Shown: positions 2,170 through 16,143 of the stretch, piece after piece | Position numbering within the stretch: the stretch's first letter is position 1 | Layout of the letters: every line of letters begins with the position of its first letter | Source: a virus | Taxonomy: Duplodnaviria; Heunggongvirae; Uroviricota; Caudoviricetes | Direction: 5' to 3' (one strand) | DNA: 19,848 nucleotides | IMG/VR virus record: IMGVR_UViG_2529293069_000013 | Made by a program: the position numbers and the translations under genes | The notes under the pieces: generated by a model | What the model was told of the DNA's origin: nothing | The model's input: only the letters and a program-made list of their open reading frames with translations | Databases searched by the model: none

Positions 2170-3706
2170 GGGGTGTTGTCTCCTCTTCCGGCCTGCGACT
2201 CTCCGCTATCTGCTGCTGATACGCCTGCGCTATCCACACCGGACGTGAGAGTCCGGCTTTTTGCCGCTCTGCAGATTCCCTGACCTGCTGGCGGAAAATG
2301 TCCTGATAATCCTCGCCCATCAGCGCCAGCTCTTTCTCATACGTGCTCAGTCCGGCCTCAATGCGCATCACCGATTCCTGAACCTCCTTGAGCCCGTCAA
2401 TGGCCATTCTTCCGGCTCCAATCCACTCTGCCCGTGACCAGGCTGATCGCGCCTGATAAAAATCAAAACGTGCCCGTGGCGGACGAATAATCCCCCGAAG
2501 AAGTGCCTCTTCCAGCCAGCAGGAAAACATCTGCGTGGCCAGCCGGGCCGCAATAAATTTTCGCCGCCCCATAAAATAGCGCCACGACTCATTGGCGGAG
2601 GCGCGGGCACTTGAGTAACTGACCTTCGAGTAATCACGGGACAACTGTTCGTAGGAAACGCCAAGACCGGCGGCGATATACCGCAGCAACGCCTGTTCAA
2701 GCGCAGAAAATCCATTGTCTGAATCCTGCGCAGTCTGTAGTTTCAGATCATCACCAGGGAAAAGGTGCGGAATTTTGACACCGCCCAGTGTCACGTTATT
2801 CGTGTCATACCAGCTGGAGAACTTCTCCAGAATATTAATAAGCGGATTATCTTTCTGCTCCTGTGGCGCGCCGGCGATATATTCAAAGGCCTTTTCGGTA
2901 TCAAGTTCACTTTCAATCGTCGCTGCATACATCGCCTTCACTATGGCCGACTGAAGCTGTGTTGCCTGCAGGGAATCGAGCATCTTCAGCCGTTCCATGA
3001 CGCTGTAAAACTGGTTGGCCCCACGGGTCTGCCCGTCCTCCACCGGCTCGAAAATATGCAGCATGGCCGGACGCCCGGTGGGAAGTTCACGCGGGATCCG
3101 TTCCCATCGTCCACTCCCGGAGAACGGAAAATCATCCTCACAGATATGGTACGCAACGGCACGGCCATATCGATCGACCTCCACCCCGGCCCGCAGAAAA
3201 CGGTTCCCCATACCGTGTCCTGGCGTGTCCACCCGTTTCGGACTCACGGCTTTAAAACGCGTACGGAATAACTGCGTGGTTTCCGTATCCCAGACCGGCT
3301 GCACAAAGATTTCGCCGTTAAACGCATGAACGCCCACACCTTCACGGATAAATTCCGTGAACGTGCGTTTTCCTTCCACGTCGATCTCGCCAGACATCCC
3401 TTCGGCGTATTCCGACCAGGCCGCCTCCACCTCATCGACAAAGCTTTTTGCTGCGGTCTCCCGCATCCCCAGCCAGCGCCAGTTCGGACGGTAGCTGATC
3501 AGAAACATATGCCCGACAATGTGATCCTTATGCAGAGCCACCGCATTAGCCGCTATTCCGTTATTGCGCACCAGATCATCTGCCCGGGCATTCCCCAGAC
3601 GCAACGCGGGCAGCAGGGCCGCATCGGCACTCTGCGCCGGTGGCAACCACTCAGCCATTTGCCCGCCAAATACCTGCACCGCCCCCGTTGTAGCTGAGAC
3701 TCTCAC
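2159..3706 (-). CDS. B: Portal protein B. The track ORF starts at GTG 3706; the lambda-like N-terminus (ATG 3752..3750) is in another frame, so there is an apparent frameshift near 3668-3670
   Basis: 515-aa ORF aligns with lambda gpB over most of its length (AALLP..GNARADDLVRNNG, FEPVEDGQTRGAN, AMYAATIESELDT, GLGVSYEQLSR). The ATG overlapping the W stop encodes MKRTPVLIDVNGVPLRESLSYNGGGAG, matching the gpB N-terminus, then hits TGA at 3653-3651. Confidence 0.85.
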   Translation of the reverse strand: MRVSATTGAVQVFGGQMAEWLPPAQSADAALLPALRLGNARADDLVRNNGIAANAVALHKDHIVGHMFLISYRPNWRWLGMRETAAKSFVDEVEAAWSEYAEGMSGEIDVEGKRTFTEFIREGVGVHAFNGEIFVQPVWDTETTQLFRTRFKAVSPKRVDTPGHGMGNRFLRAGVEVDRYGRAVAYHICEDDFPFSGSGRWERIPRELPTGRPAMLHIFEPVEDGQTRGANQFYSVMERLKMLDSLQATQLQSAIVKAMYAATIESELDTEKAFEYIAGAPQEQKDNPLINILEKFSSWYDTNNVTLGGVKIPHLFPGDDLKLQTAQDSDNGFSALEQALLRYIAAGLGVSYEQLSRDYSKVSYSSARASANESWRYFMGRRKFIAARLATQMFSCWLEEALLRGIIRPPRARFDFYQARSAWSRAEWIGAGRMAIDGLKEVQESVMRIEAGLSTYEKELALMGEDYQDIFRQQVRESAERQKAGLSRPVWIAQAYQQQIAESRRPEEETTPRET

Positions 3707-10232: not shown

Positions 10233-11717
10233 TTATGCTGCCGGTGCATTTATCTCCAGCATCAGACTTTCTATCTCAACGCCATACGCTGCATTTTTTG
10301 TAACATCCGTCAGCGTCAGCGCATTCAGTCCCAGTGTCAGACTGTCTTTTATAACCTGGAATGCCGGGCCAGCCACTCCATTCAGTTTCGGAGTAACCAT
10401 GGCACTGCCGGCGGTGAACACCAGCTCCAGCGTCTGCCAGTCGTTACCGTAATCGCCGAACTCCCCCAGCTTCGTGTTTCCGGCTTTCCTGTGATGCATC
10501 AGATTCACCCTGCCGTCAGTGGTCTGAGTGAAGTACGACATCAGGAACGGATTACCGGTACCCGTCATCGCCACACCATCAGGAACGGGAGCATCCGTAT
10601 ACAGATAAATCCCCAGCCCGAACTGATTGTTGGTCAGTGCACCTGACAGGCGGAACTTACAGGTCAGTCTGCCGCCCTGTGTCAGCAGGGTAATTGCGTC
10701 ATCCACCGGATGCGTCAGGGACCAGGTTTTATTGCTCTGCTTGGTGATCTTAAATACACCATCTGACAACTGAATTCCGCCATCCTTAATGCTCCAGCCC
10801 TGCGCAGCAGCCTCTCCGGCTGCCGGCAGCAGGGAGATTGTGCGAACGGACGTATCTGCAGACGGACCCGATGGCGTGTTGCCGCCGGGCGAGGGTTTGA
10901 TTTCCGGTGCCTTACCACTGATGAAGGCTGAGGTGCGCCCGGCTGCGTTCAGAATAGCGGTTGCCAGACGATCCGGAATAATGCTCCTGCGCGCCCATGA
11001 ACTGAAATGTGTCGGGCGGTTTGATGATACCTGGTTTCCATTCGTTCTCGATGCCGCACCGTAATATCCTGATGCCGGAATATCCGGATCTTCTGCCGGC
11101 GCGTTAGTGGCGGTATTGACGCCGTTACCGTCTGTCATGAAGGGCACAAAATAAACGCCCTCACTCTCCCTGTTTTTATACCCGCCGTACACGGTGTCGT
11201 ACTGGGTAGCGTATGTATTTTTCCAGTAATACGTCGTGTCACCACAAATCCACGGCACATCTGCAGCGCTGCCACCATGGCACTGCGCGTTAAACACGGA
11301 GAGGTCAGCCCTCGGATGATTCAGCGTACTCATATCCTGCACATCATGCAGACAGTGGTCAGCCGGAATAATATCGTTATATCTGCAGGCAGCCCCGCCC
11401 GGCGTCACTGTACTGCGGCGCGCCAGCTGTTTAATGCGCGGATCCGGAGCATCGTATGAATCCGGCAGCGGAAGCCCTTCACCGTAAGCCATGGCATTGG
11501 ACTGCCCGGCCAGTACGATGACGTAGTACCAATCCGGCTCAGATGAAGGGCCGACCTGTGGCTCTCCTTCAATAGCCACCGCCTGCATCAGTGTGTACGG
11601 CGTAATGGCAACCGGTCCGCCGTATGGCTGCCAGCCCTCTTTCAGTTTGTGTGTCAGCTTTTCCGCAAGGTCTGACGGCGACGCCGCCCTGACAACATCA
11701 TAATGTTTAATCGACAT
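10233..11717 (-). CDS. NanS-p-like sialate O-acetylesterase (N-terminal DUF1737-like region, SASA/SGNH esterase domain, C-terminal domain of unknown function), 494 aa
   Basis: YYVIVLAGQSNAMAYGEGLPLPD carries the GQSN esterase block; the N-terminus MSIKHYDVVRAASPSDLAEKL matches what I recall of the DUF1737 start of prophage NanS-p proteins; occupies the position between the tRNAs and holin where Stx phages carry stx/nanS-p. Confidence 0.65.
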   Translation of the reverse strand: MSIKHYDVVRAASPSDLAEKLTHKLKEGWQPYGGPVAITPYTLMQAVAIEGEPQVGPSSEPDWYYVIVLAGQSNAMAYGEGLPLPDSYDAPDPRIKQLARRSTVTPGGAACRYNDIIPADHCLHDVQDMSTLNHPRADLSVFNAQCHGGSAADVPWICGDTTYYWKNTYATQYDTVYGGYKNRESEGVYFVPFMTDGNGVNTATNAPAEDPDIPASGYYGAASRTNGNQVSSNRPTHFSSWARRSIIPDRLATAILNAAGRTSAFISGKAPEIKPSPGGNTPSGPSADTSVRTISLLPAAGEAAAQGWSIKDGGIQLSDGVFKITKQSNKTWSLTHPVDDAITLLTQGGRLTCKFRLSGALTNNQFGLGIYLYTDAPVPDGVAMTGTGNPFLMSYFTQTTDGRVNLMHHRKAGNTKLGEFGDYGNDWQTLELVFTAGSAMVTPKLNGVAGPAFQVIKDSLTLGLNALTLTDVTKNAAYGVEIESLMLEINAPAA

Positions 11718-11803
11718 CGAATTTCTCCCGTGTAGAGGAACAGAGTTAAAAAGCCGGAAGCGGAATCAAATCACAGGATGACCATCTGCCAGTGGCTGGT
11801 CGT

Positions 11804-11830
11804 AAAAAAAAGGCCGCGCCATGCGCAGCC
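11804..11830 (-). terminator. Intrinsic terminator about 90 nt upstream of the NanS-p start (stem GGCUGCGC/GCGCGGCC followed by U8)
   Basis: Minus strand reads GGCTGCGCATGGCGCGGCCTTTTTTTTACG. Confidence 0.5.
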
Positions 11831-12031
11831 GAAAATAAAGGGATAACGATGATAGTTTGAGAAAAACAGAAATAACACTTTTGTGGCAAAGCATGGTGCC
11901 GGGTGCCTCCCGGTGAATTCAGTATCAGCACCTGAATCCGCGATTACCCCATATTCCTTCTTGCTGATTGCCCCACCGCACAGGGGGATTCACCATGCAG
12001 AAGTGTTTTTAATAAACAGCAAACAAAAAAA

Positions 12032-12199
12032 TCAAGCATTATGCAGGCTGTTTCTTTTTATCACCGGCCACAGCAATACCATAATGCCGCAGACCAGCAC
12101 CCCATCCGCCAGCACCGACATGATTCTGCTGGTGAAATCCACCATCACCACCAGAAACAGCAGGAGTGCAGCCACAGTCAGGCGCAGTTTTACCGTCAC
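12032..12199 (-). CDS. Possible small two-helix membrane protein (54 aa from GTG 12199, or 37 aa from ATG 12145) immediately downstream of the TerB-like gene
   Basis: GTG overlaps the TerB-like TGA (GTGA) with GGAG 9 nt upstream; translation ..TVAALLLFLVVMVDFTSRIMSVLADGVLVCGIMVLLWPVIKRNSLHNA; not in the track (below 60 aa). Confidence 0.3.
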   Translation of the reverse strand: MTVKLRLTVAALLLFLVVMVDFTSRIMSVLADGVLVCGIMVLLWPVIKRNSLHNA

Positions 12200-12628
12200 A
12201 GGTAATTCTCCAGACGAAGACCCAGAACACCGGCAATCTCTTCCAGCACCTTGCGCTCTTCCGGCTCAATTTCGCCGTCTGCCTCCGCAATGGCCACCGC
12301 CACATCCAGCACATCTTCCGCTTCACGCGTATCGTGTTTCACATCCTCGATCTCACGTAACGCCGCACGACGACCAGTTTTAAAGTTCGTATCCAGCTGA
12401 CCGATAATGGTTGCGCTAATCGCATTAATTTCTGACGTAAACGCGTACAGCGCAGGCTGATTACGCAGTACCTGTTCGATCTTCGCTTTCTAGGAAGCCT
12501 CACATTCACCATCTGCACAGGCCACCAGGTATGCGGCGTTAATCACCACCTGTGCCAGATCGCGTTTTTCAAACTTTTTAATTTCCGTTGCCGCTCTGCG
12601 GGCTTTTTTTACCAAAAATACCAAACAT
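12196..12628 (-). pseudogene. TerB-like (tellurite-resistance TerB domain) gene disrupted by an in-frame amber codon at 12492..12490; the ATG start is also out of frame with the body across an A7 run (12604..12610) unless the start is TTG 12624
   Basis: Hand translation MFGIFGKK / ARRAATEIKKFEKRDLAQVVINAAYLVACADGECEAS * KAKIEQVL...DVLDVAVAIAEADGEIEPEERKVLEEIAGVLGL shows the TerB-type duplicated ADGE..E..K...L motif; TAG is in frame; AAGGAA RBS 7 nt before the ATG. Confidence 0.6.
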
Positions 12629-12797
12629 CGTGACGTTCCTTTGGGTGGGTGAGCCAACGCCCGGGAGCGATCTGCCCACAGAGAAAGTCACACTGACCAC
12701 TCCATAAGCTCCCCCCGAAAGGCTCTGTGGTTGGTATGCGCCGGGCGTGGTGCGGATACAAAAAAGGTCCGCAAAAGCGAGCGAGGGAAAATAAGTG

Positions 12798-12874
12798 TGG
12801 TGCGTTGTACTGGGTTCGAACCAGTGACCGATTGCTTAGAAGGCAATTGCTCTGTCCGGCTGAGCTAAAAACGC
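12798..12874 (-). tRNA. tRNA-Arg (anticodon UCU)
   Basis: 77-nt cloverleaf GCGTTTT-TA-GCTC..GAGC-ATTGC-CTTCTAA-GCAAT-..-CTGG-TTCGAAC-CCAG-ACAACGC-A-CCA; anticodon loop CU-UCU-AA. Confidence 0.85.
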
Positions 12875-12887
12875 AGAATACCGATAA

Positions 12888-12964
12888 TGGACCGCCATCG
12901 GAGACTCGAACCCCGCGAAACCAGCTTCGAAGGCTGGCGTTCTATCCCGATGAGCTAATGGCGG
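12888..12964 (-). tRNA. tRNA-Arg (anticodon UCG)
   Basis: 77-nt cloverleaf with anticodon arm CCAGC-CTTCGAA-GCTGG, T-arm CGGGG-TTCGAGT-CTCCG and a 7-bp acceptor stem plus TCCA; the D-stem has one mismatch. Confidence 0.75.
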
Positions 12965-12971
12965 TATGTGA

Positions 12972-13047
12972 TGGTGGCCCTTGCTGGATTTGAACCAGCG
13001 GCCTGGCGATTATGAGTCGCTCGCTCTCACCACTGAGCTAAAGGGCC
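12972..13047 (-). tRNA. tRNA-Ile2 (anticodon CAU, ileX/ileZ-like; Met cannot be excluded)
   Basis: GGCCCTTTAGCTCAGTGGTGAGAGCGAGCGACTCATAATCGCCAGGCCGCTGGTTCAAATCCAGCAAGGGCCACCA is very similar to E. coli ileX as I recall it; anticodon loop CU-CAU-AA. Confidence 0.85.
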
Positions 13048-13245: not shown

Positions 13246-13274
13246 AATATATGCCTTTCAATCTACTTTTGCAA
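13246..13274 (-). promoter_or_regulatory. PR'-like late promoter (-35 TTGCAA, 17-bp spacer, -10 TATATT) at the 3' end of the Q-like gene
   Basis: -35 at 13274..13269 and -10 at 13251..13246; start site about 13239; the tR'-like terminator lies about 70 nt downstream, as for the lambda-family 6S RNA. Confidence 0.5.
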
Positions 13275-13947
13275 CACTTTGCTTTGAAAATGCCGCCTTT
13301 TGTTTTGAACGCGTTCTCATTACAAACAATAAAGCCTCACTATCCAGTCGGTGAAAAATGTGTTTCATTGCAACCCAGTGACGAGTAAATGTTTTGGACC
13401 AGTTTTTAGTTGTCACTCCCACCAGTAATGCCAGCTCCTTGTATTCATAACCTTCCCCACCAAAAAGTTCTGCTTTTACTGCCTGCGCCGCCAGCCAGAT
13501 TAATTTTTTCAGGCGTTCCTGCGTTTTCCCTGCAATTTTTCTGGTACCGGATTGAGTATTAAATTCATTCCACGCCCACTGTGTTATCGCGATCTGATAT
13601 TCCCAACAAATACTCCCGCTGTAACACCACAACAACCAGGCTTTATGATGTTCTTCAAGAGACAGAACAGCCCGCCGCCACGATGATGTCGAAAACTCAA
13701 TCGGACTGACCAGAGGAATTGACGTCACCTTCGCCAGCGATTGCTTTCCCGGGATTGGTGGATTATCCCGCGTTATCATTTTTCCAGTCACTTCATCGCG
13801 GTACCGGATTTTTTTTCGCCTGTAACGCCCTGTATCGAACATGGCATTCTCCTGCCAGGCTTCAAGCTGACCTTTTGTTGCCCCAATCAAATCGGCGGTA
13901 GCGATAATGAGCAGCTCACGCACAAACTGTAAATAGTGGTTATTCAT
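13258..13947 (-). CDS. Putative late-gene antiterminator Q (QuuQ-like), 229 aa from ATG 13947
   Basis: Assigned by position: directly downstream of rusA with ATGA overlap, directly upstream of the PR'-like promoter, terminator and tRNAs. No sequence motif recognised; the track ORF starts two codons earlier at GTG. Confidence 0.5.
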   Translation of the reverse strand: MNNHYLQFVRELLIIATADLIGATKGQLEAWQENAMFDTGRYRRKKIRYRDEVTGKMITRDNPPIPGKQSLAKVTSIPLVSPIEFSTSSWRRAVLSLEEHHKAWLLWCYSGSICWEYQIAITQWAWNEFNTQSGTRKIAGKTQERLKKLIWLAAQAVKAELFGGEGYEYKELALLVGVTTKNWSKTFTRHWVAMKHIFHRLDSEALLFVMRTRSKQKAAFSKQSVAKVD

Positions 13948-14303
13948 GCGCACTCCAGTTCTGTGATTTTTATCCCCAGCCGCTCACCAGGAACGAGCTG
14001 ACCGCGCACAATATTGATTTCATCAAACTGCTCATCGTCCATTAGCAACCCCGCATGCGTCAGCGCATCCAGCGGCGCTTTCAGAATATTGTCCAGGTCA
14101 CGGCGGCGCTTATCCGGTGGCTCGGCAATAATCTTTATCGCCAGCCTTCCGGACAGGCTTAATTTCAGCCGCTGCTGGCGAACAATAAGCGCCACAGCCC
14201 GGCGATAACGCTCACCGGCTTTTGATACAAAATATGTGCTGCCACGACGTCGCCAGTAGGTGTTCACCGTCGGCGGGTAAGGTAAAACCAAATCTATGAG
14301 CAT
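13944..14303 (-). CDS. rusA: RusA Holliday-junction resolvase
   Basis: 119 aa; LPYPPTVNTYWRRRG, the catalytic DKRRRDLDNILKAPLDALTHAGL and DDEQ motifs resemble E. coli RusA. Confidence 0.85.
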   Translation of the reverse strand: MLIDLVLPYPPTVNTYWRRRGSTYFVSKAGERYRRAVALIVRQQRLKLSLSGRLAIKIIAEPPDKRRRDLDNILKAPLDALTHAGLLMDDEQFDEINIVRGQLVPGERLGIKITELECA

Positions 14304-15812: not shown

Positions 15813-15968
15813 TTACTCCTCAGGTTCGTAAGCTGTGAAGACAGCGACCTCCGTCTGGCCGGTTCGGATTCGTACCTCGCAGAGGTCTTTCCTCGTTACC
15901 AGTGCCGTCACTATGACGGTTAAACAGATGACGATCAGGGCGATTAACATCGCCTTTTGCTGCTTCAT
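15813..15968 (-). CDS. hok: Hok/Gef-family type I toxin, 51 aa
   Basis: MKQQKAMLIALIVICLTVIVTALVTRKDLCEVRIRTGQTEVAVFTAYEPEE against plasmid R1 Hok [58 protein letters not shown] RBS 9 nt upstream of ATG 15968. Confidence 0.8.
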   Translation of the reverse strand: MKQQKAMLIALIVICLTVIVTALVTRKDLCEVRIRTGQTEVAVFTAYEPEE

Positions 15969-16143
15969 AACCTGCTTCTCCTTGCCTTTCGGCGCGTAAG
16001 AGGCTAACCTACGTTTGTGAAGCATAGATTGGGCCTCAGATTAATGTTAAGCGTCTTGCAGGACGCGTAATGTTAACTGGGGCTTTTCTCTGTCTGCCTT
16101 ACGGTGGCATGCCCGAGGCAGACAGCCTCAAGCACCCGCAGCA

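Follow-up and report, generated by a model that had tools for sequence, protein, structure and literature searches.

Does the TerB-like gene that lies between the tRNA cluster and the nanS-p-like gene of this prophage still yield a protein, in spite of an amber codon within its frame and a start codon that is out of frame with its body, or is it a dead gene? From end to end, the window (the whole stretch of 19,848 nucleotides analysed here) shares 99.9% identity with a prophage of E. coli O157:H7 strain 493/89, and the equivalent prophages of EDL933 and of many other strains match it at 99.4%. The locus consists of two accessory genes, the moron pair tciA-tciB, in a lambdoid prophage of O157:H7, a moron being an accessory phage gene that is dispensable for phage growth. 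On the minus strand the antiterminator gene Q is followed by three tRNA genes, tRNA-Ile2(CAT), tRNA-Arg(TCG) and tRNA-Arg(TCT), and then by tciA, tciB, an STnc100 sRNA, a hairpin, the nanS-p-like gene and the holin/lysis genes (Table 1). The pair occupies the moron slot downstream of Q, which holds other cargo in some related prophages. Public annotation already covers the gene family, the partner and the status as a pseudogene, and the gene pair is a known one: on identical loci PGAP reports a 'tellurite resistance TerB family protein', marks it as pseudo with an 'internal stop' and starts it at the TTG at 12624. As detailed below, we are highly confident that tciA is dead in this prophage, carrying an amber codon at Glu46 and an expanded A run, and that this allele has spread between prophages and keeps decaying.

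Table 1. Features of the tciA-tciB locus and its surroundings, in window coordinates.
Feature	Position	Strand	Remarks
Antiterminator Q gene	13258..13953	-	PGAP annotation
tRNA cluster, anticodons CAT (annotated Ile), TCG (Arg), TCT (Arg)	12798..13047	-	tRNA search and PGAP; upstream of tciA
tciA pseudogene (TerB family)	12196..12628	-	433 nt; intact alleles 432 nt = 143 codons + stop
Two start codons, ATG 12628..12626 and TTG 12624..12622	12622..12628	-	Sequence; PGAP uses TTG
A7 run (A6 in intact alleles of the same haplotype)	12604..12610	-	Alignments; haplotype counts
Amber codon, TAG for GAG (Glu46)	12490..12492	-	DNA alignments to intact alleles
tciB, 55-aa DUF3927 protein	12032..12199	-	Pfam PF13064, phrog_1470; annotated WP_000216649.1
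STnc100-family sRNA match	11855..12027	-	Rfam RF02076, 100.8 bits versus gathering score 47
Intrinsic-terminator-like hairpin and T run	11812..11830	-	Closes the tciAB-sRNA block
nanS-p-like ORF	10233..11717	-	tciA sits between the tRNAs and this ORF

A sequence-only reading of the window had recognized a TerB signature in the gene, and profile searches upheld this resemblance. The conceptual translation, with both lesions repaired, matched the Pfam TerB family (PF05099) over residues 32-139 (E = 6.1e-10, 39.9 bits versus a gathering cut-off of 24.4). phrog_632 ('tellurite resistance') was matched end to end, at positions 1-143 of 143 (E = 2.1e-68), and the TerB entry PDB 2JXU was matched distantly (E = 4e-7), while the NCBIfam profiles gave only a weak match, to the TerB-like part of DjlA, far under the cut-off. 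The lesion-repaired window copy is 93-97% identical to intact TciA from phages JLK-2012 and PPyecE_EH1910, and 40-51% identical to the TciA of phage P1 across the full 143 aa. Homologues in Erwinia, Pseudomonas, Vibrio, Klebsiella and Salmonella phages and in P1 cover approximately 88-100% of the 143-aa query, and full-length relatives in the databases measure about 140-148 aa. Similarity over the full length of ~143 aa and the presence of tciB directly downstream place the gene in the phage TciA subfamily. For the fold we used an AlphaFold model of an intact, 96%-identical homologue (P0002), which has seven helices and a pLDDT of 89.3. Searching the PDB with this model by Foldseek returned 2h5n, which we take to be a TerB-like structural-genomics protein, as the top and only convincing match (probability 1.00, TM-score 0.55-0.63). 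As modelled, the intact homologue has the all-helical TerB fold; the window copy itself is unable to make it. Two acidic motifs are found in TerB proteins, D39...E46 and D117-G118...E124 in the numbering of TciA, and in the window the second is present and the first is broken, as the codon of Glu46 is TAG. The DNA is a member of the TerB family by descent; its product is not. Membership in the ter operon (terZABCDEF) was considered and rejected, since terC, terD, terZ, terA and terE are absent from the PGAP annotation of the 99.9%-identical locus, which over the whole window lists phage genes only. A PADLOC scan for defence systems reported only a sub-threshold PDC-S48 match (E = 0.006), and none could be assigned.

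The amber codon stands in the context GCT TCC TAG AAA, and beyond it the frame stays open for 97 further codons, ending ...AEADGEIEPEERKVLEEIAGVLGLRLENYL, up to the TGA at 12198..12196. The position is GAG in all the intact alleles that were aligned (those of JLK-2012, Evi and PPyecE_EH1910, WP_044805529.1 of strains 2013C-3342 and FORC_042, and the copy of the 86-24 derivative 6565), a G-to-T change at Glu46 of the 143-aa protein. The stop had been noticed within the first ADGE motif, with Glu and Gln both considered as the residue that it replaces. The residue is Glu, which is invariant across 18 aligned homologues with identities of 50-97%. It forms the acidic end of the first D-G-E-x4-E motif and pairs with D39 as E124 pairs with D117-G118 in the second repeat. 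A stop at this codon deprives the product of this conserved acid and of the whole protein beyond it, leaving at most a fragment of 44-45 residues, comprising helix 1 and the first loop. The idea that the ORF might naturally end at this point does not apply here, as the homologues are full length, at 141-148 aa.

The codon that follows Ser45 is unusually variable across copies. Besides GAG (Glu) and TAG (stop), it encodes Trp in the deposited proteins P0004 and P0012 (TGG presumed), and two different in-frame insertions of 6 nt were found directly after GAG, yielding EKVKAK and EKFKAK (P0006 and P0013; loci L009 3001-3438 and L011 3001-3435). The two Trp proteins, each a singleton TAG-to-TGG variant, are curiosities rather than evidence of selection. 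We also noticed that phrog_3920 (48 positions, 'unknown function') matches exactly the ORF of the C-terminal fragment, 12196..12342 on the minus strand, which has a GTG start and reads MKHDTREAEDV...; it looks like a database family that was built from mis-called fragments of broken tciA copies.

The second lesion is at the 5′ end. The ATG has a ribosome-binding site, AAGGAA, at 12641..12636 with a spacing of 8 nt, and it opens an ORF of only 16 codons, MFGIFGKKSPQSGNGN followed by a stop. Intact alleles that share this 5′ haplotype have A6 in place of the A7 run, and their N-terminus reads MFGIFGKKARRAA; the one extra A places the ATG out of frame with the tciA body. The TTG is in frame with the body across the A7 run, and its translation up to the TAG is LVFLVKKARRAATEIKKFEKRDLAQVVINAAYLVACADGECEAS. 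All the elements picked out from the letters alone (ATG 12628, AAGGAA, the A7 run, TTG 12624, the TAG and the GTG-initiated ORF) were correctly positioned on the minus strand, and MFGIFGKK, put forward as a possible conserved N-terminus, is indeed the ancestral one, the intact alleles carrying A6. When exact 5′ haplotypes were counted, the A7 version was found in 554 records and the A6 version in eight. On its own the A7 change may not inactivate the gene: its effect is less clear-cut than that of the stop, and A7 alleles with an intact GAG have been deposited as MVFLVKK... proteins that start at the TTG (P0005, P0007, P0013). The TTG and the ribosome-binding site are 12 nt apart, and the well-positioned ATG 4 nt before the TTG competes with it; for these two reasons we would expect TTG-started A7 alleles to be expressed weakly. 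Both single-lesion combinations, A6 with TAG and A7 with GAG, were found, implying that the lesions were reshuffled by recombination or that the homopolymer slipped more than once.

The small hydrophobic ORF downstream, which had been proposed as a possible membrane partner, turned out to be tciB. Its product matches Pfam DUF3927 (60.4 bits versus a cut-off of 25) and phrog_1470, 'TciB-like' (E = 1.8e-29), and its hydropathy profile contains two hydrophobic segments, roughly at residues 7-22 and 33-47. The GTG start of its 55 codons (12199..12032) overlaps the stop of tciA in the sequence GTGA. tciB has a GGAG of its own 8 nt upstream of the GTG and is intact in the window. The tciA-tciB pair is annotated also in phages JLK-2012, Evi, PPyecE_EH1910 and P1. 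In two deposited proteins, P0011 (197 aa) and P0064 (170 aa), the TerB and DUF3927 parts are fused in one ORF, probably by small indels at the GTGA overlap. Such fusion ORFs faintly hint that the two products act jointly.

To learn how widely the lesions are distributed we turned to complete E. coli genomes. tciA-like DNA was found at 3092 places in 807 of the 5426 genomes (median of 4 per genome). The amber allele was counted by a 55-mer centred on the T of the TAG, so that every 28-nt megablast seed spans that base, and it was present at 1006 places in 577 of the 5426 genomes, with a median of 2 and up to 5 copies per genome. One nonsense haplotype thus accounts for roughly one in three tciA copies in these finished genomes, a fraction to be read with the strong bias of E. 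coli genome sampling towards O157:H7 in mind. A 681-nt stretch of the locus recurs with an identity of 99% or more in 537 E. coli genome records, and all 40 records among the matches listed carry it unchanged (100%). Carriers of the TAG among the matches listed belong, by name or by strain identification, to O157:H7, O55:H7, O145:H28, O45:H2 and O111, and also include strain H19, presumably O26, and chicken isolates. None of the four tciA-carrying phage records in the phage collection has the amber codon. The lesions are real and are fixed in large clades, and the amber mutation arose once, all its carriers sharing one flanking haplotype. The suggestion that the gene was recently inactivated did not hold, as the same TAG haplotype extends across 577 complete genomes and several serotypes and has decayed further. 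Intact copies, for which a comparison with orthologous prophages had been suggested, do exist: WP_044805529.1 in 2013C-3342 and FORC_042, and P0006 in the O157:H7 strain PV15-279. The latter strain combines two amber copies with at least one paralogue that is still intact, P0006 (145 aa), which resides in a third prophage. The death of an amber copy therefore leaves the cell with TciA activity, in keeping with neutral decay.

Only one finished genome contains an intact allele near-identical to that of the window (A6, GCA TCC GAG), at L006 1513-1944 (NADC 5570/86-24/6565), and that strain is a laboratory mutant of 86-24. This allele was found with a query repaired to A6 and GAG in the window background; we did not rely on it and used WP_044805529.1 instead. 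Against the sibling record, 6564, the repaired query matched best at another position, to a copy of 98.9% identity; the L006 allele may stem from gene conversion between prophage copies or from an assembly effect.

The TAG alleles have kept changing. Several 5′ ends occur with the TAG haplotype. The window and both amber copies of PV15-279 have A7, O145:H28 strain RM13514 has A6 with a 5′ end of the JLK type, and in the alleles of the chicken strain and of O45:H2 an unrelated sequence has replaced the 5′ end. The allele of O111 strain 11128 has both a 5′ replacement and an internal deletion of ~156 nt, and the O145 allele has acquired D117E, in the second invariant motif, and R125C. In some tciA-amber haplotypes a TGG-to-TAG change has shortened tciB, too, to 43 aa (WP_001344632.1; L015 2665-2796 in O111:H- strain 11128 and L016 2821-2952 in chicken strain Z1323CEC0019). 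Variants private to TAG alleles comprise seven nonsynonymous and two synonymous substitutions, where the neutral site ratio is 3.18, while those private to intact alleles comprise six nonsynonymous and 51 synonymous ones (Fisher p = 6.6e-5 versus TAG alleles); these counts, for which the O111 entries were read by hand from the MAFFT alignment, are small, and the contrast is somewhat overstated, as the two classes differ in age and young polymorphisms are rich in nonsynonymous changes. The direction is clear despite the small counts: according to this evidence TAG alleles change at the neutral ratio and the amber allele is no longer working.

Could tciA nevertheless be functional through recoding, either by read-through or suppression of the amber codon together with initiation at the TTG at 12624, or by a +1 slip, ribosomal or transcriptional, on the A7 run? 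The frame past the TAG is still open to the normal stop, the TTG restores the frame at the 5′ end and A7 alleles with GAG exist, the amber allele is very common, and in P0004 and P0012 the TAG has become TGG. Yet none of the three tRNAs in the window (anticodons CAT, TCG and TCT) is a suppressor that reads UAG, as none has a CUA anticodon, and to our knowledge wild-type E. coli has no amber suppressor. The intact homologues have GAG and A6, and so there is no conserved recoding signal; none of the homologues compared needs a frameshift. Slippery sites of the A AAA AAA type favour a -1 shift, and the shift required here is +1. Nor was an RNA structure found 3′ of the A7 run, where the RNA is less structured than shuffled controls (z = +2.0). 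A programmed recoding site was accordingly rejected, and the deletions, 5′ replacements and neutral-ratio changes of TAG alleles also speak against a gene that works by recoding, which we regard as very unlikely. Basal read-through of the UAG may occur at a fraction of a percent. From the earlier alternative of an inactivated moron or one in need of suppression or slippage, we retain the inactivated TerB-family moron; the suppression or slippage part does not agree with the lack of a CUA tRNA and of a structure, nor with the neutral decay. That faulty sequencing or assembly produced the stop codon and the extra A is hardly credible: such errors do typically arise in homopolymers and in prophage genes present in several copies, but the identical 681-nt sequence recurs in hundreds of independently finished genomes, the TAG 55-mer occurs in 577 genomes and the A7 haplotype is found exactly in 554 records.

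A different reading accepts the loss of TciA and regards it as adaptive, or regards the locus as partly functional through TciB alone, the 44-aa fragment or the sRNA, the amber having spread by selection, for instance where removal of a superinfection barrier lets lambdoid prophages accumulate. It could draw on the success of one nonsense haplotype, at ~1006 of 3092 copies and up to five per genome, on the tciB gene that is intact in the window with its own ribosome-binding site, and on the STnc100-type sRNA directly downstream. Several observations weigh against it, and we hold it to be unlikely. PV15-279 keeps an intact tciA paralogue besides its amber copies, some TAG haplotypes have a broken tciB as well, O157:H7 predominates in the genome collection, and hitch-hiking on mosaic prophage modules accounts for the spread without selection. 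Quite unlikely, too, is a specific form of the idea, in which selection rather than drift spread the amber in Shiga-toxin-producing and related E. coli, TciA being lost while TciB and the STnc100/PasD-type sRNA are kept, either because a superinfection or envelope-stress barrier was lifted or because read-through supplies a weak dose of TciA.

Several neighbouring elements deserve mention. The STnc100 sRNA match (100.8 bits) begins 5 nt past the tciB stop, and TerB is listed as a conserved neighbour of PasA/PasC. The nanS-p-like gene (10233..11717, minus strand) encodes 494 aa versus 616 aa in sister prophages. An in-frame deletion of 122 aa between two 'RADLS' repeats removes the SASA esterase domain, and the Pfam match to SASA is lost while those to DUF1737 and DUF6645 are kept; because of this deletion the neighbouring nanS-p-like moron is probably dead in this strain as well. 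A partial 'hypothetical protein' pseudogene reported by PGAP at about 11694..11837 on the plus strand overlaps the nanS-p start on the opposite strand and looks like an annotation remnant rather than a gene. On the other side of tciA, the 40 nt just downstream of the last tRNA-Arg (12711..12750) match the edges of ISEc20 insertions in the PPompW and Stx2a phage records at 100%, which suggests that this segment is a target of IS110-family elements in related prophages. A sok antisense RNA match (15963..16137, minus strand; Rfam RF01794, 114.9 bits) adjoins the hokD toxin gene annotated in the identical locus.

Returning to the dead tciA of this O157:H7 prophage, we read the course of events as follows. 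The intact pair encodes a 143-aa, all-helical TerB-family protein and, with its start coupled to the tciA stop, a 55-aa membrane protein of two segments. A G-to-T change made an amber codon of the invariant Glu46 codon, and the A6 run, expanded by one base, no longer left the tciA body in frame with its good ATG and ribosome-binding site. The amber allele, of single origin, was then carried by prophage transfer and inter-prophage recombination into many prophages and serotypes, and has continued to decay in the recipient lineages.

What the intact protein does can be approached through its family. TerB domains are seen as helical modules that sense ligands or metals and act at the membrane. 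Judging by homology, intact TciA is probably a TerB module of the cytoplasm that binds a ligand or metal and acts with TciB at the inner membrane, in protection from superinfection or envelope stress. The conservation of the translational coupling between tciA and tciB, like the occasional fusion ORFs, fits a putative docking of soluble TciA on TciB at the inner membrane. An association between TerB and the membrane protein TerC has been reported (PMC11003894), and in DjlA the TerB-like domain adjoins a membrane helix (bioRxiv 10.1101/2024.08.29.610257). For stand-alone phage TerB genes a role against superinfecting phages or in xenobiotic tolerance was proposed (PMC7824862). Our literature searches found no functional study of tciA, tciB or DUF3927.

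In itself the finding has little weight, and only the extent to which one dead allele has been copied makes it mildly notable. With one nonsense allele at about one third of the tciA copies, in several prophages per genome, it is a clean example of a dead allele spread by exchange between prophages. In practice, matches to 'TerB family' or 'tellurite resistance' in prophages of Shiga-toxin-producing E. coli should not be taken as functional resistance genes. Natural pairs of intact and amber alleles have now been identified, with which the function of the widespread phage TciA-TciB pair can be tested.

The closest known systems are the tciA-tciB pairs of JLK-2012, PPyecE_EH1910 (annotated 'TciA/TerB-like protein') and Evi, which have the same gene pair as the window, in the same order and with the same GTGA overlap, and in all three the pair is located downstream of Q, as it is in the window. 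In JLK-2012 and PPyecE_EH1910 it is also upstream of nanS-p/yjhS and the lysis genes, whereas Evi has no esterase gene, and among the three upstream tRNA genes are annotated only in JLK-2012. Their DNA is 88-93% identical to that of the window, and the proteins are 93-97% identical after repair of the two lesions. The three copies are intact, at 143 aa, whereas in the window copy codon 46 is TAG and the 5′ run is one A longer. The names tciA and tciB come from the tci genes of phage P1, where TciA is followed by a ~54-aa TciB beside phage tRNA genes, as in the window; P1 differs in having a third small gene, tciC, and in being a plasmid prophage, with the genes upstream of ban. The function given to the P1 genes is a putative one, assigned by homology only, and the genes were non-essential in a CRISPRi screen (PMC10695390).

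Further away are the TerB of terZABCDEF (Klebsiella TerB, PDB 2JXU) and the TerB-like domain of DjlA, which share with TciA the Pfam family, the helical repeat and two acidic motifs of the D-G-x5-E type. The reported association of TerB with the membrane protein TerC (PMC11003894) parallels the pairing of TciA with the membrane protein TciB. The TerB of terZABCDEF is nevertheless distant from TciA (E = 4e-7); the window is devoid of terC, terD, terZ and terA, and the partner is a DUF3927 mini-protein rather than TerC. Stand-alone TerB genes of Erwinia jumbo phages encode proteins with 65-69% identity over 98% of the length, and there the genes are intact and reside in another genomic context.
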